Positions 37,146 through 52,915 of a DNA stretch of 64,000 bases are shown one piece after another (within the stretch, counting starts at the first letter, position 1; the number at the start of each line of letters is the position of its first letter). The stretch lies in contig JAGLOA010000002.1 of assembly GCA_023139205.1 (NCBI GenBank), positions 27,530 to 91,529 of the forward strand, written 5' to 3'. The notes below the pieces were generated by a model. The model was not told where the DNA came from, ran no database searches, and saw nothing but the letters and a program-made list of their open reading frames with translations. Both the position numbers and the translations under genes were made by a program. The DNA is from Candidatus Pacearchaeota archaeon. Lineage in GTDB: Archaea > Nanobdellota > Nanobdellia > Pacearchaeales > GW2011-AR1.

Positions 37146-37798
37146 AAAAGGGGATATTAAAAAAAATTAAGCAAATTGAGAAAGATAGAAAAGTAAAAGT
37201 ATTATTTTTAATTGAATCTGGGAGCAGGGCATGGAGATGGGAAAGTGAAGATAGTGATTATGATGTTAGGGGAGTTTATGTTCAAGATTATTTAAAAGTA
37301 GGGGATCTTGATAAACAAATCATTATTGTTGATGGAGAATTAGATATTGTTTTATGGGATTTTAGAAAATTTTTAAAAAAATTAATTAATATTTTTAAGA
37401 AAGGCTTTAGTGAACAGGCTCTTAAACAGCATTATGTTTCAATGGCAAGACAAAATTTTGAAAAATATATTAAAAATTCAGGAGATAAAGCTAATCTGAA
37501 AAAATATGTTTATGTTTTAAGAAGTGTGGCTTGTGTCCTCTGGATTGGAAAATATCATTCCCCTCCACCTAAAGATTATAAAAAAGTTGCAAAACTCTTA
37601 CCCAAAGAAGTTCAAAGATTTTTTAATAAAATTGTTGAAGACAAAAGAAAATCAGAAAGTTTAGAAGGAAGTAGAAATAAAGAAGTAGAAAAATATGTTT
37701 GTGGTTTCTTCAATAAGAAGTTTGATAAAACCGAAAGTAATTTTTCAGATAAATTAATTGATAAAATATTCAAAACTTATGTTATGGAGTTAAAATGA
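37142..37798 (+). CDS. predicted nucleotidyltransferase (RlaP/PF10127-like)
   Basis: LFLIESGSRAWRWESEDSDYDVRGVY has the GS…D.D pattern typical of that family. Confidence 0.5.
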   Translation: MKKGILKKIKQIEKDRKVKVLFLIESGSRAWRWESEDSDYDVRGVYVQDYLKVGDLDKQIIIVDGELDIVLWDFRKFLKKLINIFKKGFSEQALKQHYVSMARQNFEKYIKNSGDKANLKKYVYVLRSVACVLWIGKYHSPPPKDYKKVAKLLPKEVQRFFNKIVEDKRKSESLEGSRNKEVEKYVCGFFNKKFDKTESNFSDKLIDKIFKTYVMELK

Positions 37799-38937
37799 AA
37801 CAAATTTATCTTGACAATGCTGCAACAACAAAAGTTGATGATGAAGTTGTGAAAGCTATGTTGCCTTATTTTACTGAAAAATTTGGAAATGCTTCTTCAC
37901 AGCATTTAGTTGGAAGAGAAGCAAAAGAAGCTTTGGAGAAAAGTAGGAAAATTATTGCAAAATCAATTGGTGCAAAAACTAGGGAAATTATCTTTACATC
38001 TGGAGGAACAGAATCAAATAATCTTGCGTTGAAGGGTTTGTTCTTTGAAAATTATCCTGAAAAAAATCATATTATTACAACTAAAATAGAGCATGATTGT
38101 ATTTTAAATTCCTGCAAATGGCTTGAAACACAAGGAGCTAAAGTTACTTATCTTGATGTTGATGAAAATGGATTTGTTAATCCTGAGGAAGTTAGAAAAG
38201 CAATAACTGATAAGACAATTGTTGTTTCAATTATTCATGGAAATAATGAAATTGGTGTGATTCAGGATTTAGAAGCAATTGGGAAAATATGCAAAGAAAA
38301 AAATGTTTTATTTCATACAGATGCGTGCCAGAGTTTTACAAAAGTTCCTATAAATTTTAAGAAACAAAATTTAAGTTTAGTGACTTTAAATTCTCATAAA
38401 ATTCATGGACCTAAGGGTGTTGGGGCTTTGTATATTAAAGAAGGGACTAAAATAACCCCCTTGGCTCATGGAGGAGGACATGAAAGAAATTTAAGAGGTG
38501 GAACAGAAAATGTTCCAGGCATTGTTGGATTTGCAAAAGCAGTGGAAATTTCTAAACAAAAAGATATTACAGGGATGGCAGAATTAAGGGATAAATTAAT
38601 TAAAGAAATTTTGAAAATCCCTAACACAAGATTAAATGGTTCAAATGAAAAAAGATTATGCACTAATGTAAATGTTTCATTTAATAATATAGAAGGTGAG
38701 GCAATTGGAGGTTATCTGGAAAATGAAGGAATTTATACTTCAACTGGCTCTGCGTGTATGTCAAATACTTTAGAATCGAGCCATGTTTTAAAAGCAATTG
38801 GGCTTTCTCCTATTCAGTCAAATAGTTCATTAAGAATAAGTTTAAGTAAATATACAACTGAAGAAGAGATTGATTATGTTTTAGAAAAACTTTCAAAAGT
38901 AGTTAAAAAATTAAGGATGATTAGTCCAATAAAATGA
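37795..38937 (+). CDS. iscS: cysteine desulfurase (IscS/NifS class)
   Basis: PLP-lysine motif SHKIHGPKGVGALY, active-site SACMS-type Cys (TGSACMSN) and N-terminal IYLDNAATT. Confidence 0.9.
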   Translation: MKQIYLDNAATTKVDDEVVKAMLPYFTEKFGNASSQHLVGREAKEALEKSRKIIAKSIGAKTREIIFTSGGTESNNLALKGLFFENYPEKNHIITTKIEHDCILNSCKWLETQGAKVTYLDVDENGFVNPEEVRKAITDKTIVVSIIHGNNEIGVIQDLEAIGKICKEKNVLFHTDACQSFTKVPINFKKQNLSLVTLNSHKIHGPKGVGALYIKEGTKITPLAHGGGHERNLRGGTENVPGIVGFAKAVEISKQKDITGMAELRDKLIKEILKIPNTRLNGSNEKRLCTNVNVSFNNIEGEAIGGYLENEGIYTSTGSACMSNTLESSHVLKAIGLSPIQSNSSLRISLSKYTTEEEIDYVLEKLSKVVKKLRMISPIK

Positions 38938-39155
38938 AAATAACAAAAAAGACAAAGATTTCAAAGATTGTGGAAGAAAAGCCAGAAGCAGTTGAGATCT
39001 TATTTGATGCTGGGATGGGCTGTGTAGGCTGTCCTATGGCTCAACAAGAGACTTTAGAACAAGGTTGTTTAGCTCATGGAATGGATGAAGAAAAAATTAA
39101 TGAACTGGTTGAGAGGTTGAGTGAAGAGATTGGAGAGAAAAATGGTAAAAATTAA
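38934..39155 (+). CDS. small CxxC protein (DUF1858-like redox protein)
   Basis: 73 aa. GMGCVGCPMAQQETLEQGC motif. Confidence 0.4.
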   Translation: MKITKKTKISKIVEEKPEAVEILFDAGMGCVGCPMAQQETLEQGCLAHGMDEEKINELVERLSEEIGEKNGKN

Positions 39156-39636
39156 ATCATTTGAAGGAGAAGAGAAAGATATAGAATGTATTGGATGTGC
39201 ATTACAAAAAGGAATTATTAAATTCTCTACAGGATTAATTTATGAAGGAAAATATTTTGAAGTAAGACAAGATTATGAATTACCTATAGAGGGATTTTTC
39301 ATAATTTCTTCTAAAAGACATATTATTGGTTTTGCTGATTTTACAGAAAATGAACAAAAAGAATTTATTGAAATTCTTTGTAAATTAAGAAAGATTATGA
39401 GAGAAAAATTAAAGATAAAGTATGTAGAAATATTCATGAGAGAACATACTATTAAGAGTAAAAAAGCTCCATCACATTTCCATATTGGATTGTTACCCAA
39501 ATATGATTGGATGAAAAAATTTAAAGATACGAAACAGATTTTTGAATATGCAAAAGAAAAAAGAAAAACAAAAAAGAATTTGGAAAAAATAAAGAAAATT
39601 GCAAATAAAGTAAAAAAAGAGTTGAATAAAAAATAA
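39142..39636 (+). CDS. HIT-superfamily-like protein with a degenerate triad
   Basis: CIGCAL N-terminal motif and SHFHIGLLPKY (HxHx..P) near the C-terminus. Likely start is Met 39142 inside the listed ORF 39121..39636. Confidence 0.4.
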   Translation: MVKIKSFEGEEKDIECIGCALQKGIIKFSTGLIYEGKYFEVRQDYELPIEGFFIISSKRHIIGFADFTENEQKEFIEILCKLRKIMREKLKIKYVEIFMREHTIKSKKAPSHFHIGLLPKYDWMKKFKDTKQIFEYAKEKRKTKKNLEKIKKIANKVKKELNKK

Positions 39637-39637
39637 A

Positions 39638-40351
39638 ATGAAAACTAGTGAGATAAAAAATCAATTAAAGAAAATTGCACAGGACTTTGGTTTAAAATAT
39701 AATTCAAATTGGTTTAATGTTTTGTGGATTTCAAAAAGACATGAAATTTTAACTGAATATGTTGGAATTTGCCCAGATCCAATTTATCAAAAATATGGAA
39801 AAACAGCAGAACAAAGAATAAAAAATATTGATAAGTTTGTAAATTCGGCAGATTTTAAAGAGTGTGTAAAAAGATATGGAGGACAGGTTGTTACAAGGAG
39901 AGGATTAGAGATTATTGAAAAAAATTATAAAAAAATTAAAAATCTAAAGTTAAAAAAAGAATTATTAAAATTAAACAAAAAAATAAAAGATAACTTAGGA
40001 AAAAATAAATGTCTTGCACTTCTTACAAGATCAAAAATAAAATCAGAAGAAGAAAAAATAAAGACGATTATTCTTCGTCACGAATGGATTCATATACTTA
40101 TGGATGAAAATAATCTTGGATTTGAAGAATTAGGGAAGAACATATATTGGAAATATAATGAGGGATTAGTAACATATTTTGAAAATTATTTAGATAAAAC
40201 TCTTAAAAAACTTGAAATGAAATTGGATCGGGAAAGATATCCTATGGAAAAATATTACTATCTTTATGGGCTTAAGTTTAGAGAACTTATGAAAAATAAA
40301 AAAACACCTAAAGAGAGGAAAGAGGTAATTTTAAAATTAAATAAAAAATGA
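39638..40351 (+). CDS. hypothetical protein with an HExxH motif
   Basis: LRHEWIHILMDE is a possible zinc-binding HExxH. Otherwise K-rich. Confidence 0.35.
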   Translation: MKTSEIKNQLKKIAQDFGLKYNSNWFNVLWISKRHEILTEYVGICPDPIYQKYGKTAEQRIKNIDKFVNSADFKECVKRYGGQVVTRRGLEIIEKNYKKIKNLKLKKELLKLNKKIKDNLGKNKCLALLTRSKIKSEEEKIKTIILRHEWIHILMDENNLGFEELGKNIYWKYNEGLVTYFENYLDKTLKKLEMKLDRERYPMEKYYYLYGLKFRELMKNKKTPKERKEVILKLNKK

Positions 40352-40719
40352 ACTACACAAAAGAACTACTAAAACATTTTAATAATCCAAAGTTTGTTAA
40401 GAAAATTAAGAATCCAGATGGAGTTGGAGAAGTTGGAAATATTCAGTGCGGAGATGTTATGCATTTGGAAATAAAAGTTAAAGATAATAAAATTGAGGAT
40501 ATTGGTTTTCATACATTTGGATGTGCTGCTGCGATTTCAAGTTCTGATATTGTTTGTGAATTAGTAAAAGGAAAAACTTTAGAAGAAGCTGAAAAAATAA
40601 CAAAAGAGGATATTGTAAAAAAATTAGGTGGAATGCCCCCAATAAAAGTTCATTGTTCTGTTTTAGGAATAAGTGCATTGAAAAAAGCTATTGAGGATTA
40701 TAAGGAGAAAAACAAATGA
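40348..40719 (+). CDS. iscU: Fe-S cluster scaffold IscU/NifU-like
   Basis: GNIQCGDVMHLEIKV, HTFGCAAAI and the KVHCSVLG conserved Cys-containing motifs. Confidence 0.85.
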   Translation: MNYTKELLKHFNNPKFVKKIKNPDGVGEVGNIQCGDVMHLEIKVKDNKIEDIGFHTFGCAAAISSSDIVCELVKGKTLEEAEKITKEDIVKKLGGMPPIKVHCSVLGISALKKAIEDYKEKNK

Positions 40720-44968: not shown

Positions 44969-45259
44969 TTGAACTTTTTTATATATGAAATGACAGAAAA
45001 AGAATTAAGAAAAAAATTAGAAGAATATGCAAACAAAGCTGGATTTAAATTAAATCCTGATGAAAAAATTCTTGAATTTGTATTAAAAGGGCTTGTTAAA
45101 AATAAAGAAAAGCACGGAGAAATTTATTGCCCATGCAGAGTTGTTACAGGAGATAAAGAAAAAGATAAAGAGATAATTTGTCCTTGTGTATTTCATAAAC
45201 AGGAAATAAAAGAAACAGGACATTGTAAATGCAATCTTTTTTTTGCAAAATCAGATTAA
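44969..45259 (+). CDS. ferredoxin-thioredoxin reductase catalytic-subunit-like protein
   Basis: CPCR…CPC…HCKC spacing typical of FTR catalytic subunits. 96 aa. Confidence 0.55.
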   Translation: MNFFIYEMTEKELRKKLEEYANKAGFKLNPDEKILEFVLKGLVKNKEKHGEIYCPCRVVTGDKEKDKEIICPCVFHKQEIKETGHCKCNLFFAKSD

Positions 45260-46927: not shown

Positions 46928-47460
46928 TTGGATTCCAAATTACTCTGTGAATACAAACTGCCTTTAGTGGAATTGCTTTTAGATAAAACAGAAGATGTTT
47001 TTGGATTTGTTATTTCGAAAGAGTCTCTTTTTGGGGAAAAGTATAGATTTTTAATTGGGTCTGATAAAAAAAATGGGAAAACAAATGTTTATCACCATCA
47101 TTCCTCTTGGGATATTTATGGGCATCAAGAATTCTTTGGATTGGGTTTTTTGGGGATGAAAATCATAAATCTAAAATTAAAGAAATTGTTAATAAGAAAC
47201 TATTAACTAACTCTGATTTAGAGAATAATCTTAATTTTGATGTTGGTGGGGGAATTTGGTTTTCAATTCTTAATAATTTAAAAGATGGTTTTTCAACGTC
47301 TGGTCTTAGATTAGAGAACTCTGAAATTAAGTATAAACCTGACATTAAAGAGATATATAATTGCTTGTTGAATAAAGTTTATGATAAAAAAGAGATTGGA
47401 TTTAAGCCTGAGTTTGAGGAAGATGTGAAGAGTAACTATGGTTTTAAATTCTCCATTTAA
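46928..47460 (+). pseudogene. hypothetical gene split over two overlapping frames (frameshift within about 47065-47160)
   Basis: ORFs 46928..47206 and 47107..47460 overlap in adjacent frames. Both frames are open between 47068 and 47206, and two homopolymers (A8 at 47065-47072; T6G4 at about 47147-47156) lie in the overlap. Confidence 0.35.
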
Positions 47461-47534
47461 AAAACATTAAGTTGTTATTATGATTTAGTGGAAAGAAATG
47501 TTTAAATAGTATTTATTTCTTAGTTTCTTGCCCA

Positions 47535-47581
47535 TACAATTTGTAGTTGTTTAGTGGATTTGACATACAACATATTGTATA
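47535..47581 (+). promoter_or_regulatory. two AT-rich imperfect palindromes upstream of nrdR (TACAATTTGTA and ACATACAACATATTGTATA), possible NrdR-box-like operators
   Basis: ACAA…TTGT half-sites, about 33 bp centre to centre, 130-180 bp upstream of nrdR. They match the bacterial NrdR box consensus only loosely. Confidence 0.2.
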
Positions 47582-47712
47582 AAGGGGACCAAGGTTCCCC
47601 TTATCAAACTCATTCGTTGAAAAGTCGTTATTGATTATTAAAATTAGTCGCTGTTCAACAAATTCGCCCCTCCTGTTAAGTTTGGGGGTTCACGCCTGAT
47701 TAACCAAAAAAA

Positions 47713-48150
47713 ATGGATTGTCCTTATTGTTCAAATACAAAATCAAAAGTAACTGACAAAAGAGAATCTCCTGAAGGAATAAGGAGGAGAAGAGAATGTT
47801 TGAAATGCAAGAAAAGATTCACGACTTATGAAAAAATAAGTAAAAATGACTTTTATATTATAAAAAAAGATAAAAAGCGTGAAAAGTTCAGTAGAGAGAA
47901 ATTAGAAAAAGGGATTGAAAAGGCATTTGAAAAGCGTCCTGTTTCAAAAGAAAAAATAGAAAAAATGATTAATGAAATTGAAGAACAAATAAGAAGAAAG
48001 GGGAAAAAAGAAATTAAAAGTTCTGTTGTTGGGGAATTGATTATGAAAAAAATGAAAAAATTAGATAATGTTGCTTACATAAGATTTGCTTCTGTTTATA
48101 GAAATTTTCAGGATGTTCAGGATTTTAAAAGAGTGCTAAAACAAGTTTAG
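47713..48150 (+). CDS. nrdR: transcriptional repressor NrdR (zinc ribbon + ATP-cone)
   Basis: MDCPYCS…RRRECLKCKKRFTTYE zinc ribbon and KLDNVAYIRFASVYRNFQD are near-identical in pattern to bacterial NrdR. Confidence 0.85.
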   Translation: MDCPYCSNTKSKVTDKRESPEGIRRRRECLKCKKRFTTYEKISKNDFYIIKKDKKREKFSREKLEKGIEKAFEKRPVSKEKIEKMINEIEEQIRRKGKKEIKSSVVGELIMKKMKKLDNVAYIRFASVYRNFQDVQDFKRVLKQV

Positions 48151-48210
48151 CTCACTCATCCAAATTAAATATGAAATTAAATTTAAATGAAGGAATTAAA
48201 GGAGTTGTAA

Positions 48211-51200
48211 ATGGGAGATAATTTGCAATCTATTTTAGAAGAAGAAAAAATTAATTTTCCAAAAGCAGTAAGAAAAAGAAATAATCAAGTAGCTGAATTT
48301 GATCCAAGTAAAATTAGTGATGCTATTTCTTATGCATTTGAAAGTGTTGGGATTCATGATAAACAAAAATCAGAACAGGTTACAATAGAAACTTTGAAGA
48401 TGCTTTCTGGAAATGGGAATATGCCTAATGTAGATGAAATTAATGAATTAAATGTTAAAGCCTTAGAAAAATTAGGGCATCATAATGTTGCCAAATCTTT
48501 TGAACAATATGCTAAAAAAAGAAGAGAGGTTAGAGTTTTAGGTTCTGGAGGGGGAGGCAATACTACTGATTCTTTTTTAATGGTTTCTTCTATTTCTCAT
48601 GATTCTTCTTCTCCATGGAACAGGGAAAAGATTAGGGATTCTTTAATTAAAGAAGCAAATGTTGATTACAAAACCGCCACACATGTTGCAAAATCAGTTG
48701 AGAATAAATTAATTACATCAAAATACCCCTCTATAACAACTGATTTTATAAGGGAGATAGCAAAAATAGAATTGATAGATAGAGGATATCATAATTCTGC
48801 AGAGATGTATACTAATTTTAGTATTCCAAGAACTGATTTAGAAAAAATGATTTTAGATAAAAACGATGAAAATAGTAATATTCAAGGCAATAATCCAGAG
48901 GCAGTTAATTTTACTTTAGCAGGGATAATTGGAAAAAAATATGCCCTTAGCAAAATTTTCAGTAAAGATGTTGCAAAAGCCCATTCAGATGGTAGCTTAC
49001 ATCTCCATGATTTAGATATGCCAACAAGATTTTATTGTTCTGCACATTCTTTATCATACTTAGAAAAATTTGGATTAAAATTAGATAATCTGCAGACTTC
49101 TTCATCACCTCCAAAACACACAGAAACATTAACAGGACACTTAAATACTTTTTTTGCGGCTATGGAGGCATATTATGCAGGAGCTTTAGGGGTTGGATAT
49201 TTTAATATTATGTATGCTCCTTTAATTCAATCTGATTTAGAAAAAGAAGGAGAGAAAAGGATTGGAATTTTAAAAAACCAAATTAAAAAGATTAAAGAAA
49301 ATTTTACAAAGTCAAAAGTATTGACAAAAAATTTAGATGATATCTTAACACAAGAGGAAGAAAATATTTTAAGATTTGAAAAAAATCCTATGTCTATTTT
49401 ATCTGATAAAGAAATTGATGGATTTATGAAACAAAGAGGACAAGAAGCAATATATGCTGCTTCACAAAATGCATTTTCAAGAGGGGGACAAACTCTTTTC
49501 ATAGATTTTAATATTCATACTGGAGTTCCAGATTATTTAAAAAATACTCCTGCAATTCTTCCTGGAGGAAAATATGGCATTAAAAGAAATAATAAAACAG
49601 TTTTTTTAGAAGAAAAAAAATTAAAAGAAAAAACTGCTTCTGGGTATAATTTAATTGAATTAATTGATCCTAAAACTAAGAAAACTTTAATGAAAGAGAG
49701 GATAGAAAATAAAGAACTTATGCAAGACTGGTTTTTAGAAAAAGGAGAAAGTTCAATAACTTATAGAGATTATGATAAAATTTCAAAAAGATTTACTAAA
49801 AATTTGTTAAAGGTTTGGGGAGATGGGGATGAGAATGGTCAGCCTTTTGCGTTTCCTAAATGTGATTTGCATATTGATAAAGATACTTTTAAAGATCCAG
49901 AACAAAAAGAAATTCTTGAACAAGCGTGTAAAGTTGCAAGTGAAAATGGATCCACTTATTTTGTTTTTGACAGGGATGAAGTTTCTTTATCAGCATGTTG
50001 CAGATTAAGAACAAAGGTAGAAGATAATTATGTTTTAAAACATCCAGAGTCTATGAGATTTTGCGGATTTCAAAATGTTACAATTAATCTTCCTCAAGCA
50101 GCATATAGAACTACAAGGAATAATAAAAAGAATTTAGAGGGATTTTTAGAAGAAGTTGATAAAACAATGGATTTAGCAGTTAAAGCACATTTGCAAAAAA
50201 AAGGATTTATAGAATCTCTTCAGAAAAAGGGATTACCTCAATGGCAGACTGGACAAAAAAGTTTAGATGGACAGCCATATATTGATACAAATAAAGCAAC
50301 ATATATTTTAGGATTAATTGGATTAAATGAAGCTGTGCAGTGTTTGACTGGGAAAGAACTTCATGAGATGGATAATAAGGAATTTAAAGATATTGCATTA
50401 AAAACAGTTGCACATATGAATATAAAATCAAAAGAATATGAAAAGAAACATGGATTGAAATTTTCTTTAGAAGAAAGTCCTGCTGAATCTGCTTCAAGAA
50501 GACTTAGTAAAACAGACTTAGTAAATTATTCTGAATCAAAGGAATTTATTAGAGGAAGTATTGAAAAAGATCAAACTTATTATTCTAATTCTATTCATCC
50601 AAGGGCAGATGCTCCTATAAGCTTAATTGAAAGAATAGAACTACAGGGGAAATTTCATTCTGCAATTGAATCTGGAGCAATTACTCATGCATTTATTGGG
50701 GAAGAAAAACCAGATCCTCTTAGCATATATAGTTTAGTTAAAAAATCTTTTGAGAATACTCAAACTGCTCAGTTAACAATAAGCCCGGAATATACTTCCT
50801 GCAGAGATTGTGGAAAATTAAACCGGGGGCTGATAAAAGAATGTAAAAAGTGTGGGAATGATGATCCAGACACTTTGAAAGGGATGACAAGGATTGTGGG
50901 GTATTACAGTTTAATTGATAACTGGAATGAATCAAAATTAGAGGAATTAAAAGCAAGAGAAAGAGGAAATTATTCTTTGAAAAATTCTAAATTAGAAATG
51001 AAAATTCCTGAATTGGAAAATCCTTATAAGGGGATTACAGCAATAAGTATTGGGAAAAGTAATTGTCCTTTATGTGAAGATTTACAGTCAGCAATGAAAT
51101 ACAGAGGATTAGTAAAGAAATATGGAGAAGAATTTAATATTATTGGATATAAAGCAGATACTGAAGAAGGGTTGACAAATGCTATGTTAGCAAATGTGAA

Positions 51201-51351
51201 TTTATCTCAGTTGCCAGCATTAATTGTTCTGGATAAAAACTCAAATGAAATTTACAGAGGAAGCACAATAGGAAGTAATGGGAAAACAATTCCAATAAAT
51301 ACAAAGGAAGTAGAAGATTCTATAAAAAATTATTTAGAATTAAATAAATAA
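48211..51351 (+). CDS. nrdD: anaerobic ribonucleoside-triphosphate reductase NrdD (class III) with N-terminal ATP-cone(s) and a C-terminal glutaredoxin/NrdH-like domain
   Basis: ATP-cone KAVRKRNNQVAEFDPSKISDAISYAF plus a second cone-like segment. Glycyl-radical region TRIVGYYS preceded by the CRDCG…CKKCG zinc ribbon. C-terminal roughly 110 aa contain SNCPLCEDL (CPxC) and QLPALIVLD (cis-Pro region) of a thioredoxin fold. 1046 aa. Confidence 0.9.
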   Translation: MGDNLQSILEEEKINFPKAVRKRNNQVAEFDPSKISDAISYAFESVGIHDKQKSEQVTIETLKMLSGNGNMPNVDEINELNVKALEKLGHHNVAKSFEQYAKKRREVRVLGSGGGGNTTDSFLMVSSISHDSSSPWNREKIRDSLIKEANVDYKTATHVAKSVENKLITSKYPSITTDFIREIAKIELIDRGYHNSAEMYTNFSIPRTDLEKMILDKNDENSNIQGNNPEAVNFTLAGIIGKKYALSKIFSKDVAKAHSDGSLHLHDLDMPTRFYCSAHSLSYLEKFGLKLDNLQTSSSPPKHTETLTGHLNTFFAAMEAYYAGALGVGYFNIMYAPLIQSDLEKEGEKRIGILKNQIKKIKENFTKSKVLTKNLDDILTQEEENILRFEKNPMSILSDKEIDGFMKQRGQEAIYAASQNAFSRGGQTLFIDFNIHTGVPDYLKNTPAILPGGKYGIKRNNKTVFLEEKKLKEKTASGYNLIELIDPKTKKTLMKERIENKELMQDWFLEKGESSITYRDYDKISKRFTKNLLKVWGDGDENGQPFAFPKCDLHIDKDTFKDPEQKEILEQACKVASENGSTYFVFDRDEVSLSACCRLRTKVEDNYVLKHPESMRFCGFQNVTINLPQAAYRTTRNNKKNLEGFLEEVDKTMDLAVKAHLQKKGFIESLQKKGLPQWQTGQKSLDGQPYIDTNKATYILGLIGLNEAVQCLTGKELHEMDNKEFKDIALKTVAHMNIKSKEYEKKHGLKFSLEESPAESASRRLSKTDLVNYSESKEFIRGSIEKDQTYYSNSIHPRADAPISLIERIELQGKFHSAIESGAITHAFIGEEKPDPLSIYSLVKKSFENTQTAQLTISPEYTSCRDCGKLNRGLIKECKKCGNDDPDTLKGMTRIVGYYSLIDNWNESKLEELKARERGNYSLKNSKLEMKIPELENPYKGITAISIGKSNCPLCEDLQSAMKYRGLVKKYGEEFNIIGYKADTEEGLTNAMLANVNLSQLPALIVLDKNSNEIYRGSTIGSNGKTIPINTKEVEDSIKNYLELNK

Positions 51352-51352
51352 A

Positions 51353-52084
51353 ATGGATATTGCAGTTATTTATCATCAATCTCTTAAAGATTATCCTGGA
51401 AAGGTTTCTGAAGTAGTTTTTACGCCTAATTGTAATTATAAATGTCCTGCGTGTCATGCTAAAGAAATTTTAGATAGTAAAGAAAAAATAGATGAAAAAG
51501 AATTTTTTAATTATCTTGATTCTGGGAAGAAGTGGATTGATGGAGTTGTTTTATGCGGAGGAGAACCAACTTTAGAAAAAGATTTAATAGATTTTACAGA
51601 GAAATTAAAAAAAAGAGACTTAGCAGTAAAATTAGATACTAATGGGAGCAACCCAAAAGTTTTAGAAAAATTATTAGATGAAAAATTAATTGATTATGTT
51701 GCAATGGATGTTAAGGGACCTAAAAGTCTTTATTCTAAAATTATTGGGAAAGAAAAAGCAAATGTAAAAGATATTGAAGACTCAATGAAAATTGTTCAGG
51801 ATTTTCCAAATTATGAATTTAGGACAACTATTGCTCCTGTTCCAAATGGTAACTGGACATATTTTATGAATGTTAAAGATGTGGTTGATATGGCAAAATG
51901 GATTGTTAATGTTACAGGAGGAAATAAACACAAACACTATCTTCAAAAATTTGTTCCAAGAGAAAACGGGCTTCTTGATTCAAGATTAGAAAAATTTCCT
52001 GAAACTCCTGAAAAATTATTAAAAGAGATTAAAAAAGAAATAATTAAATATCTGCCCAATTGTGAAATAAGAGATGAAGATTAA
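51353..52084 (+). CDS. nrdG: anaerobic RNR activating enzyme NrdG (radical SAM)
   Basis: CNYKCPACH CxxxCxxC radical-SAM motif. GGEPTL glycine-rich SAM-binding motif. Confidence 0.8.
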   Translation: MDIAVIYHQSLKDYPGKVSEVVFTPNCNYKCPACHAKEILDSKEKIDEKEFFNYLDSGKKWIDGVVLCGGEPTLEKDLIDFTEKLKKRDLAVKLDTNGSNPKVLEKLLDEKLIDYVAMDVKGPKSLYSKIIGKEKANVKDIEDSMKIVQDFPNYEFRTTIAPVPNGNWTYFMNVKDVVDMAKWIVNVTGGNKHKHYLQKFVPRENGLLDSRLEKFPETPEKLLKEIKKEIIKYLPNCEIRDED

Positions 52085-52125: not shown

Positions 52126-52554
52126 ATGGTCAAGATTAAAATAAAAAAAATAAATCCTGATGCAATTATTCCAAGATATGCTCACGAAGGTGATGCAGGA
52201 ATGGATTTGTGTTCTGTTGAAGAGTATGAATTAAAACCAATGGAGAGCAGAATAATCAAAACCGGGTTGCAAGTTGAAATTCCGGAAAAATATTTTGGTT
52301 CTATTCGGGATAGATCAGGTTTGGCTGCTAAAAATTATATTCACACTCTTGCAGGAGTTGTTGATTCTCATTATAGGGGAGAGGTTGGGGTGGTATTAAT
52401 TAATTTAGGAAAAGAAGAATTTAAAATAAAGAAATATGACAGGATTGCCCAGATGTTGATTCAGCCTGTTGAAAGAGTTGGGATTGTGAAAGTTGAAAAT
52501 CTTTCTGAAACTATAAGAGGAGAAGGCGGGTTTGGAAGTACTGGTGTGCAATAA
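52126..52554 (+). CDS. dut: dUTP diphosphatase (trimeric dUTPase)
   Basis: AGVVDSHYRGEVGVVLINLG (motif 3) and C-terminal RGEGGFGSTG (motif 5). Confidence 0.8.
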   Translation: MVKIKIKKINPDAIIPRYAHEGDAGMDLCSVEEYELKPMESRIIKTGLQVEIPEKYFGSIRDRSGLAAKNYIHTLAGVVDSHYRGEVGVVLINLGKEEFKIKKYDRIAQMLIQPVERVGIVKVENLSETIRGEGGFGSTGVQ

Positions 52555-52588: not shown

Positions 52589-52915
52589 ATGGTAAATGAA
52601 GATAAAGTTCCTGAACTGACAAATAATGAATTTGAAGATTTTATTAAAGAAGGAATTGTTTTAGTTGATTTTTTTGCAGAATGGTGTATGCCTTGTTTAA
52701 TGATGACTCCGATAATTGATGAGTTAAGTGGGAAATTTAAAGGGAAAATAAAATTTTGCAAAATTAATGTTGGAGAAAATCAGGAACTTGCACAAAAATT
52801 TAATGTTAGTTCTATTCCAAATTTTACTCTTTTAAAAGACAGAGAAATTATTGAGCAATTTATTGGTTCAATGTCTTCTGAAAAATTTGAAGAGAAATTG
52901 AAAGAGTTTGTATAA
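52589..52915 (+). CDS. trxA: thioredoxin
   Basis: AEWCMPC active site (CxxC) in a 108-aa Trx fold. Confidence 0.8.
   Translation: MVNEDKVPELTNNEFEDFIKEGIVLVDFFAEWCMPCLMMTPIIDELSGKFKGKIKFCKINVGENQELAQKFNVSSIPNFTLLKDREIIEQFIGSMSSEKFEEKLKEFV

Follow-up and report, generated by a model that had tools for sequence, protein, structure and literature searches.

What reduces the active site of an anaerobic ribonucleotide reductase (RNR) in a DPANN archaeon, and what is the unannotated domain at the end of its catalytic subunit for? The question is raised by a window of 64 kb (the whole stretch of DNA analyzed here: positions 27,530 to 91,529 of contig JAGLOA010000002.1, from a Candidatus Pacearchaeota archaeon), in which three tightly spaced open reading frames (ORFs) on the + strand at 47713-52084 encode NrdR, NrdD and NrdG. 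These genes had been named in a preliminary description made from the sequence alone, and curated family models confirmed all three. Specifically, NrdR matched TIGR00244 at 184.8 bits (cutoff 124.65) along with Pfam Zn_ribbon_NrdR (PF22811) and ATP-cone (PF03477); NrdD matched PF13597 over amino acids (aa) 220-917 (E 6.6e-121, 405 bits) and TIGR02487 at 372 bits (cutoff 326.35); and NrdG, which starts 2 nucleotides (nt) past the nrdD stop codon, matched TIGR02495 at 167.5 bits (cutoff 131.15) and carries the radical S-adenosylmethionine (SAM) motif CNYKCPAC (CX3CX2C) at aa 27-34. The explanation that best fits the evidence, and one we consider probable, is that NrdR represses an operon for a class III RNR that is thiol-dependent (NrdD2-like) and has a dedicated redoxin fused to the C-terminus of its catalytic subunit (Table 1).

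Past the glycyl-radical motif (TRIVG897YYS), NrdD continues for 129 residues, comprising a linker of ~25 aa and a domain of ~105 aa with CPLC and LP1002. This tail domain had no significant match in Pfam (best, Thioredoxin_2 at 16.8 bits against a cutoff of 27, E ~0.01) and none in NCBIfam even at E up to 10, and the precomputed Pfam annotation of NrdD homologues shows ATP-cone and NRDD only. We built a 35-sequence alignment of tail domains (A1), which was used for AlphaFold2 and for a profile search of the PDB. With A1, AlphaFold2 returned a beta-alpha-beta-alpha-beta-beta-alpha core with a predicted local distance difference test (pLDDT) of 83 and a predicted template modeling score (pTM) of 0.73, while from the single sequence the pLDDT was only 41. 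In the model, a strand (942-948) leads to C952xxC955, where helix 1 starts, while P1002, the putative cis-proline, lies just ahead of a strand. Of the 50 matches listed by Foldseek against the PDB, two were chains of a cpSRP43 complex (ranks 43-44) and the rest were thioredoxins or other proteins of the same fold; the probability was 1.00 and target-normalized TM scores were mostly 0.5-0.7. The A1 profile, in turn, retrieved almost only thioredoxin-fold proteins from the PDB sequences (best E 3.4e-5), and a per-member Pfam scan of the 35 tails gave weak matches to Glrx-like (20/35), Thioredoxin_2 (18/35), PF00462 (4/35) and PF00085 (2/35). Both cysteines of the CxxC (C952, C955), N997 and P1002 were invariant across A1, which consists of fused tails. 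The thioredoxin fold with a CPLC active site and a cis-Pro region that had been read into this tail at the outset was therefore recovered by modeling and by structural comparison.

The kind of redoxin was harder to place among named families. The NrdH-redoxin model TIGR02194 did not match the fused domain at E up to 10 and gave 12.8 bits (cutoff 85.75) for a short bacterial homologue. A canonical thioredoxin (PF00085/TIGR01068) or glutaredoxin (PF00462) was rejected, as matches were sub-threshold only and neither WCGPC nor CPYC was present, and a recent duplicate of the neighboring thioredoxin gene was also rejected (hhalign E 0.03, probability 1.7%). As modeled, the tail domain is a divergent thioredoxin-fold redoxin that, by family thresholds, falls outside NrdH, the canonical thioredoxins and the glutaredoxins.

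The active site of NrdD bears on the reductant directly. Formate-dependent class III RNRs (NrdD1; E. coli, T4) have a single-Cys MGCR finger loop and no Glu (PMC4493059, PMC9669993). According to the same two papers, the NrdD2 enzymes, which depend on thiols, are set apart by a third Cys (xCCR) and a Glu at the position of Thermotoga maritima E495, and a missing finger-loop Met marks the thioredoxin-only class III RNRs; NrdD3 (Methanosarcina barkeri) is described, in PMC9669993, as having a QCCR/A loop with neither Met nor Glu. The Zn-ribbon cysteines and glycyl-radical motif of the window NrdD aligned with the NrdD structures of T4, P. copri and T. maritima, and phmmer placed its SLE754ESPAE against NIE495QVPAE of T. 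maritima, a position occupied by Tyr in T4 and Leu in P. copri. Where the T4 finger loop reads MGCR, the window NrdD has Ala595 at the Met position, and all 120 relatives listed have A or Q there. In 28 full-length homologues, C276, ACCR (595-598), E754, G897 and the Zn-ribbon cysteines were invariant. The HxHD motif, with a role in holding the triphosphate (PMC11226230), is also present (H264-D267).

The full NrdD2 signature was thus found: the xCCR double Cys, Glu754 and no finger-loop Met. The formate-type NrdD1 signature (MGCR, no Glu) was absent in the alignment to solved NrdDs, in which the window NrdD shows ACCR as its loop and has Glu754, and the NrdD3 signature (QCCR/A, no Glu) was likewise absent, the loop being ACCR and the Glu invariant among the 28 homologues. 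By sequence criteria, the assignment of the window NrdD as an NrdD2-like, thiol-dependent nucleoside triphosphate (NTP) reductase is supported, and the alignment of C276, the Met-less ACCR loop and Glu754 upholds the earlier suggestion that the enzyme would depend on a thiol rather than on formate.

We then considered how widely the fused architecture occurs. Searching 5.8 billion proteins for NrdD homologues, we found it in ~38 clusters of 1008-1097 aa, with 96-100% query coverage and identity down to 44%, every one of which keeps the CxxC in its tail. The clusters with names come from Pacearchaeota or Nanoarchaeota, apart from one 'Heimdallarchaeaceae' and several labeled 'bacterium'. Next below them were bacterial NrdDs of ~800 aa that have an (S/A)ACCRL loop and are without the tail. 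A frameshift or assembly artefact was rejected as the source of the fusion, given its presence on many independent contigs and in 10 GTDB genomes.

A scan of GTDB species genomes with a full-length alignment (A2) returned 80 loci, which were analyzed by script. The redoxin was fused in 10 of the 80, labeled Woesearchaeota, Pacearchaeota, Nanoarchaeota, 'Ca. ainarchaeum' or unclassified. Bacteria accounted for the remaining 70, 68 of them informative, and a separate redoxin ORF adjoined nrdD in 59 of these 68. Such ORFs encode 88-165 aa with homology to the tail at E 1e-5 to 1e-15 and were immediately downstream, in the order nrdD-redoxin-nrdG, in 57 of the 59 loci, and upstream in two, both from Clostridia. 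Among the bacterial phyla are Lentisphaerota, Verrucomicrobiota, Kiritimatiellota, Omnitrophota, Planctomycetota, Spirochaetota, Gemmatimonadota, Glassbacteria and Caldisericota. On a metagenome contig with the split version, the NrdD C-terminus reads ...RDRQAAVQNYRVG* and the redoxin ORF begins 2 nt on. Stand-alone and fused redoxins align over G-K-x-x-C-x-x-C, T-x-(D/E)-G, the cis-Pro and a TDYS motif, with FGKxGCxKC...IP as the family pattern. The stand-alone proteins are publicly annotated as 'hypothetical protein' (one as 'glutaredoxin') and have no precomputed Pfam domain.

The reciprocal test used 80 metagenome loci picked by the redoxin pattern alone, together with tblastn. Where at least 400 nt of upstream sequence was available, an NrdD ORF ended upstream within ~160 nt of the redoxin domain in 70 of 71 loci (in one of the 70 it overlaps the domain by 55 nt). 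The finger loop was SACCR in 50/50 of the redoxin-picked loci with the loop on the contig, and nrdG came next in most. Because the redoxin is fused in one lineage and a neighboring gene in many others, we view it as a dedicated partner of this NrdD clade. A broader proposal, plausible in our view although short of probable, is that the FGKxGCxKC proteins are an unrecognized family of dedicated class III RNR reductants, an 'NrdH of anaerobic RNR' that is the donor for the whole ACCR/Glu NrdD clade, with the DPANN fusion a self-contained version that ferredoxin might drive by way of an FtrB-like reductase. If true, this would give the physiological donor of that clade across bacteria of the Planctomycetes-Verrucomicrobia-Chlamydiae (PVC) group, Omnitrophota, Spirochaetota, Gemmatimonadota and DPANN archaea.

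The association with one NrdD type also bears on the main rival to a role in turnover, in which the fused redoxin serves activation or maintenance, keeping the cysteines of the glycyl-radical/Zn-ribbon region, or those of the active site before activation, reduced for NrdG, while the catalytic reductant comes from elsewhere (free thioredoxin or formate). The point of attachment, right after the Zn-ribbon/glycyl-radical region, would suit such a role, a canonical free thioredoxin is retained in the same gene cluster, and thioredoxin has been reported in the activation of the class III RNR from E. coli (Padovani et al. 2001, cited by PMC4390871). However, a helper of this kind would be expected with any type of NrdD, whereas the redoxin is tied to the ACCR + Glu clade, as in the SACCR loops of the redoxin-picked loci (formate-type loci were not sampled systematically), and the one MCCR-type NrdD examined, from the same lineage, is without such a partner. 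We therefore regard a role in activation or upkeep as unlikely.

The tail might instead be a thioredoxin-fold module outside RNR chemistry, for example in protection from oxygen or peroxide or in redox sensing, on an enzyme that still uses formate. The dipeptide within the CxxC is variable and family members fall below threshold for all curated redoxin families, as this reading would allow, but it is difficult to reconcile with the absence of the formate signature (MGCR, single Cys, no Glu), the invariant third Cys and Glu, the strict gene adjacency in both search directions and the invariance of the CxxC and cis-Pro over the 35 fused sequences. We consider it highly improbable.

Some of the fused sequences carry bacterial labels. 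In one of them (L017, 2841-6084, on the 392-kb contig JACKPL010000001.1), the fused NrdD-redoxin is 56% identical to that of the window, and is flanked by a Kdo transferase and a phosphotransferase system EIIA gene upstream and by nrdG and then an extracytoplasmic function sigma factor downstream, with no nrdR upstream; this is a genuine bacterial context for a fused nrdD. In a neighbor-joining tree, three bacterial-labeled fused sequences, L017 among them, nested inside the archaeal fused group, and the archaeal fused sequences alone were monophyletic in 0/100 replicates. Inter-domain transfer of the fused gene is thus likely. With a very distant outgroup, all fused sequences formed one clade in only 10/100 replicates, and either fusion or fission may have come first. 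Additionally, a stand-alone redoxin homologue of 125 aa was present on a 6.7-kb contig (L013, 2567-2944) without an NrdD nearby and with neighbors lacking Pfam matches. The first ORF of this contig looks reverse-transcriptase-like by eye, and the contig may be from a mobile or viral element.

For the preferred reading, turnover by a dedicated fused redoxin, we infer the direction of electron flow, the roles of the cysteines and the repression itself as follows. NrdG would install the glycyl radical on G897, from which the radical would move to finger-loop C596 or C597, and that cysteine would attack the NTP held by the HxHD motif. Two reducing equivalents would come from C276 and the second finger-loop Cys, E754 would serve as base or proton donor, and an active-site disulfide would be left. 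The tethered redoxin (C952/C955), on a flexible linker of ~25 residues just past the glycyl-radical loop, is proposed to re-reduce this disulfide, and because of this formate would not be needed. The fused redoxin would itself be recharged by a cellular system, for which the downstream free thioredoxin and/or a ferredoxin-dependent FtrB-like reductase are candidates. At the level of transcription, NrdR with dATP/ATP would bind two 16-bp boxes 31 bp apart at the predicted start and block expression of nrdR-nrdD-nrdG.

Hints about the electron supply come from gene neighborhoods. The gene for a protein like the catalytic subunit of ferredoxin:thioredoxin reductase (FtrB) is 2.5 kb upstream of nrdR; its NF041072 score, 77 bits, is below the cutoff of 160. 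A homologue in another DPANN genome (L019, 7465-7768, minus strand) is beside trx, just downstream of nrdG, and trx comes straight after nrdG in three archaeal loci (L015, L019 and L023). The proximity of FtrB-like genes in two lineages hints at ferredoxin-driven thiol reduction. Linkage to the module is loose, and the gene is a possible electron input rather than an assigned reductase.

How did this operon come under NrdR in an archaeon? NrdR has been described as rare in archaea (PMC9110341) and was earlier documented in Halobacteria with class I RNRs (PMC3019208), and the preliminary description took its position next to a class III RNR to suggest transfer of the whole regulated module. The window NrdR has CxxC motifs in its Zn-ribbon (C3xxC6 and C29xxC32) and keeps D15, R17 and the RRRR motif (R24-R27), residues which contact DNA in the structure of Streptomyces coelicolor NrdR (PMC9110341). 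It is 100% identical to an NCBI protein from 'Candidatus Pacearchaeota archaeon', and all 120 NrdR clusters listed were at least 75% identical to it, each named one being from Pacearchaeota or Nanoarchaeota. Genomic contexts retrieved via NrdR homologues exposed a conserved Pacearchaeota slot, nrdR-[RNR]-(dCMP deaminase)-dut-trx-rpoH-rpoB, in which the RNR varies. Fused NrdD is in the slot in the window and in L001. In the marine Pacearchaeote L008 (6001-9016) the slot holds a class II NrdJ of 858 aa, and in L010 (6001-8579) an SMCCR-type NrdD of 712 aa that is 27% identical to the query, while the NrdRs of these two loci are 84% and 79% identical to that of the window, respectively. Identity to NrdRs from distant DPANN archaea with fused NrdD was 52-77%, and to bacterial NrdRs 42-56%.

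Because NrdR identity tracks the organism and not the type of RNR, NrdR is a resident, conserved feature of Pacearchaeota, and the mobile part is the RNR cassette, fused nrdD included. NrdR is thus common in the source lineage, the outcome that the preliminary description had itself named as refuting its proposal. A recent bacterial import of nrdR-nrdD-nrdG as one regulated module would accord with the described rarity of archaeal NrdR, with the nearest unfused NrdDs being bacterial (Omnitrophota, Planctomycetota and the PVC group), many of them with nrdR directly upstream, and with the deep DPANN NrdRs, which resemble bacterial NrdRs (identity up to 56%) about as much as they resemble that of the window. 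It conflicts with the conservation of NrdR among Pacearchaeota (75-85%), with a slot that stays fixed while class II, MCCR-type or fused enzymes are swapped behind it, with the flat GC content across the region and with the archaeal-type promoter; the genes around the module are archaeal as well (thermosome, RpoH/RpoB/RpoA, PTH2). The import of the entire module is thus not supported and seems to us improbable. DPANN may nevertheless have acquired nrdR in an ancient transfer.

The DNA upstream of nrdR is consistent with control by its product. Box 1 agrees with the consensus acaCwAtATaTwGtgt at 11/16 positions, including the key C4 and G13, and box 2 is the sole match in the window at three or fewer mismatches. 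The two boxes, both with the conserved C4 and G13, start 31 bp apart and are the only such tandem pair in the window on either strand. Tandem boxes with a spacing of 31-33 bp were found 5' of nrdR in 10/12 archaeal loci, including loci with class II or MCCR-type RNR. Furthermore, TTTAAATA begins 33 bp ahead of box 1 in the window. Counting the window, nine of the 10 archaeal loci with box pairs have this element (TTTATAAA in L019), at 32-36 bp 5' of the box 1 start (26 bp in L004). Archaeal transcription is expected to start at a characteristic distance from the TATA box. Because of the distance from the TATA-like element, box 1 would lie at this expected start, making TTTAAATA the putative promoter element and blocking of the start site the presumed means by which NrdR would repress its own operon. 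The 31-bp spacing agrees with the canonical geometry of NrdR boxes, about three helical turns (PMC9110341).

The leader between box 2 and nrdR is absent from relatives, in which box 2 ends ~7-40 nt before the ATG. It is GC-richer, contains a near-perfect hairpin (GGGGACC-AA-GGTTCCCC, at 47584-47600), has a folding z-score of -2.1 and occurs once in the window. Rfam gave no match over 47300-48300. In addition, the nrdR-nrdD spacer (48151-48210) is 60 nt, as compared to 1-15 nt in relatives, and has TTTAAAT-like elements as well as, 8 nt 5' of the nrdD ATG, a strong ribosome-binding site (GGAG); an internal nrdD promoter here is possible.

Several points weigh against a NrdR-repressed, thiol-dependent enzyme with its own fused redoxin. 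There is no known route by which a redoxin would reach a class III active site, nor are external shuttle cysteines known (PMC4390871). The rule for NrdD subtypes rests on one characterized enzyme (Neisseria bacilliformis) plus bioinformatics. The CxxC dipeptide is highly variable (PL, AL, SV, HI, VL, DI, GL and others), which is odd for a finely tuned redoxin, and nine informative bacterial loci (Brocadiales, some Planctomycetota, Anaerolineae) are without an adjacent redoxin, such that the partnership is not obligatory. Finally, the single match to the NrdR-box consensus is by itself within chance for the window (1.29 expected), and it carries weight because of its position, pairing and conservation.

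Table 1. Positions of the module, its functional residues and control elements, and nearby genes, in window coordinates
Feature	Position	Strand	Remarks
FtrB-like protein (ferredoxin:thioredoxin reductase catalytic subunit-like)	44969..45259	+	CPC...CPC...CKC; PF02943 E 8.5e-24
TATA-box-like element TTTAAATA	47501..47508	+	read from sequence; putative promoter of nrdR-nrdD-nrdG
NrdR box 1 ATACAATTTGTAGTTG	47534..47549	+	at predicted transcription start
NrdR box 2 ATACAACATATTGTAT	47565..47580	+	tandem partner of box 1
Leader, box 2 to nrdR start codon	47581..47712	+	~130 nt; hairpin 47584-47600
nrdR	47713..48150	+	145 aa; Zn-ribbon + ATP-cone repressor of RNR genes; TIGR00244, PF22811 + PF03477
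nrdD	48211..51351	+	1046 aa; class III RNR catalytic subunit, C-terminal redoxin fused; PF13597, TIGR02487
ATP-cone 1	48265..48525	+	aa 19-105; PF03477 model positions 2-87 of 88
ATP-cone 2	48610..48813	+	~aa 134-201; N-terminally truncated or degenerate; PF03477 model positions 11-80 of 88
Cys276 on strand beta-A (Y275-C276 pair)	49036..49038	+	aligned with T. maritima Y124-C125
Finger loop A595-C596-C597-R598	49993..50004	+	double Cys, no Met; motif classes per PMC9669993, PMC4493059
Glu754, putative catalytic base or proton donor	50470..50472	+	aligned with T. maritima E495 (named in PMC9669993)
Glycyl-radical domain	50800..50901	+	Zn ribbon C864/C867/C878/C881; radical Gly897 (TRIVGYYS)
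Linker	50962..51027	+	aa 918-939; invariant Pro933; model pLDDT ~60 (low confidence)
Fused thioredoxin-fold redoxin domain (as modeled)	51028..51348	+	aa 940-1046; CPLC 952-955; putative cis-Pro P1002
nrdG	51353..52084	+	243 aa; radical-SAM activase; TIGR02495
dut (dUTPase)	52126..52554	+	TIGR00576 174.8 bits; in conserved deoxynucleoside triphosphate (dNTP)-metabolism gene slot
Free thioredoxin (trx)	52589..52915	+	TIGR01068 100 bits (cutoff 96.8); candidate upstream electron carrier

At the N-terminus of NrdD, the one clear and one cone-like ATP-cone of the preliminary description both matched PF03477. The second reached 34.3 bits (cutoff 25.8) when scanned alone, over the partial stretch of the model given in Table 1, and has SSISHDSSS in place of the usual basic KR hairpin; its nucleotide binding is uncertain. 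The double cone is not unusual for this clade, contrary to what had been thought, as unfused bacterial relatives have both. In a nine-sequence NrdD alignment (3 fused, 6 unfused bacterial), a charged insertion of ~55 aa (aa ~345-400; 49243-49410) was present in the three fused sequences and none of the six unfused, and a second insertion (~aa 465-518) was shared with the ~920-aa NrdDs of PVC bacteria. A free thioredoxin and dut had been reported to follow the module immediately; both are there, with dut first and then trx. The active site of the thioredoxin is WCMPC, not the canonical WCGPC. A few kb upstream of the module (region 37795-40719) is an iron-sulfur cluster assembly gene, a class-V aminotransferase (cysteine desulfurase-like, 37795-38937), beside which the gene calls in the collinear locus L005 are DUF1858 and NifU_N. 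An iron-sulfur assembly neighborhood was seen again beside the nrdR slot in L001, L008 and L010.

Already known were class III RNRs that depend on thiols, redoxins encoded in operons (NrdH, and the one resembling it that partners NrdD3) and fusions between redoxins and RNR components (Grx::NrdB and a single grx::nrdD, PMC6187632). What appears to be new is the unannotated redoxin family, its strict link to the ACCR/Glu NrdD clade and its C-terminal fusion in DPANN, as well as the NrdR-box architecture on archaeal promoters and the exchange of RNR cassettes behind a fixed nrdR. In a survey of RefSeq, fusions of the grx::nrdD kind had turned up just once, in a Lachnospiraceae bacterium (PMC6187632), and surveys of RNR fusions based on domains would have missed the present family because its members are 'hypothetical proteins' without precomputed Pfam domains. 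Our full-text literature search for a thioredoxin-like operon partner of NrdD/NrdG returned general papers only, the primary papers on NrdD2 and NrdD3 being outside the search, and in a full-text search no paper mentioned both NrdR and DPANN.

Only one thioredoxin-dependent class III RNR has been characterized biochemically, and the access of a protein reductant to the buried active site is an open question (PMC4390871). A redoxin partner that spans the clade, operon-encoded in bacteria and fused in DPANN, is a concrete candidate for the physiological reductant, and the single-chain fusion offers a system for trapping the encounter of redoxin and active site, for example as a mixed disulfide for cryo-electron microscopy. 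For archaeal biology, the locus presents a bacterial-type nucleotide-sensing repressor at a predicted archaeal promoter, stable in Pacearchaeota while the class of RNR is swapped. Such exchange behind nrdR fits genome-reduced symbionts that tune dNTP synthesis to the oxygen regime.

Among characterized systems, NrdD2 of N. bacilliformis and T. maritima (Wei et al. 2014, Aurelius et al. 2015) shares with the window enzyme a glycyl-radical NTP reductase with NrdG, the xCCR loop, the Glu at the E495 position, the lack of a finger-loop Met and the YC pair on beta-A, and its proposed reductant is also thioredoxin rather than formate. In contrast to the ACCR loop of the window NrdD, that of NrdD2 is SCCR, and identity between the T. 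maritima and window proteins is low (phmmer E ~1e-11 over the C-terminal half). T. maritima NrdD is without ATP-cones, whereas the window NrdD has two at its N-terminus. Moreover, the donor proposed for NrdD2 is the general cellular thioredoxin, while here the donor would be a dedicated, divergent redoxin that is fused in archaea or operon-encoded in bacteria.

The NrdD3 system of M. barkeri (Wei et al. 2015), as described in papers citing it (PMC9176816, PMC9669993), pairs an archaeal class III RNR with an NrdH-like redoxin and a ferredoxin:disulfide reductase. The dedicated small redoxin is a point of likeness, as is the FtrB-like gene that lies close to the module both in the window and in L019. 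On the same descriptions, NrdD3 differs in its QCCR/A loop without Glu and its separate, NrdH-like redoxin, whereas here Glu754 is invariant, the redoxin is fused and does not score as NrdH, and the FtrB-like gene is loosely linked. Grx::NrdB of Facklamia ignava also has a redoxin fused to an RNR subunit, and there it was shown to be the reductant of the enzyme (PMC6187632). However, that fusion is N-terminal, on a class I radical subunit, and involves a recognizable GrxC-type domain (PMC6187632), while the fusion in the window is C-terminal, past the glycyl-radical loop, has no precomputed Pfam match and is conserved across a whole clade. NrdH of class Ib operons (nrdHIEF) is a thioredoxin-fold specific donor within an RNR operon, and nrdD-redoxin-nrdG in bacteria is its counterpart for class III; the two differ in their motifs (CVQC-type versus the FGKxGCxKC family) and in their partners (class Ib versus class III).

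The bacterial NrdR regulon (S. coelicolor, E. coli) resembles the locus in the domain architecture of NrdR, in D15, R17 and RRRR, and in two palindromic 16-bp boxes with C4/G13 that lie about three helical turns apart over the transcription start, and as here nrdR leads the RNR operon, which implies autoregulation. It differs in its ACAC...GTGT half-sites, where the window has ATACAA...TTGTAT, on an archaeal TATA-type promoter in a member of DPANN.

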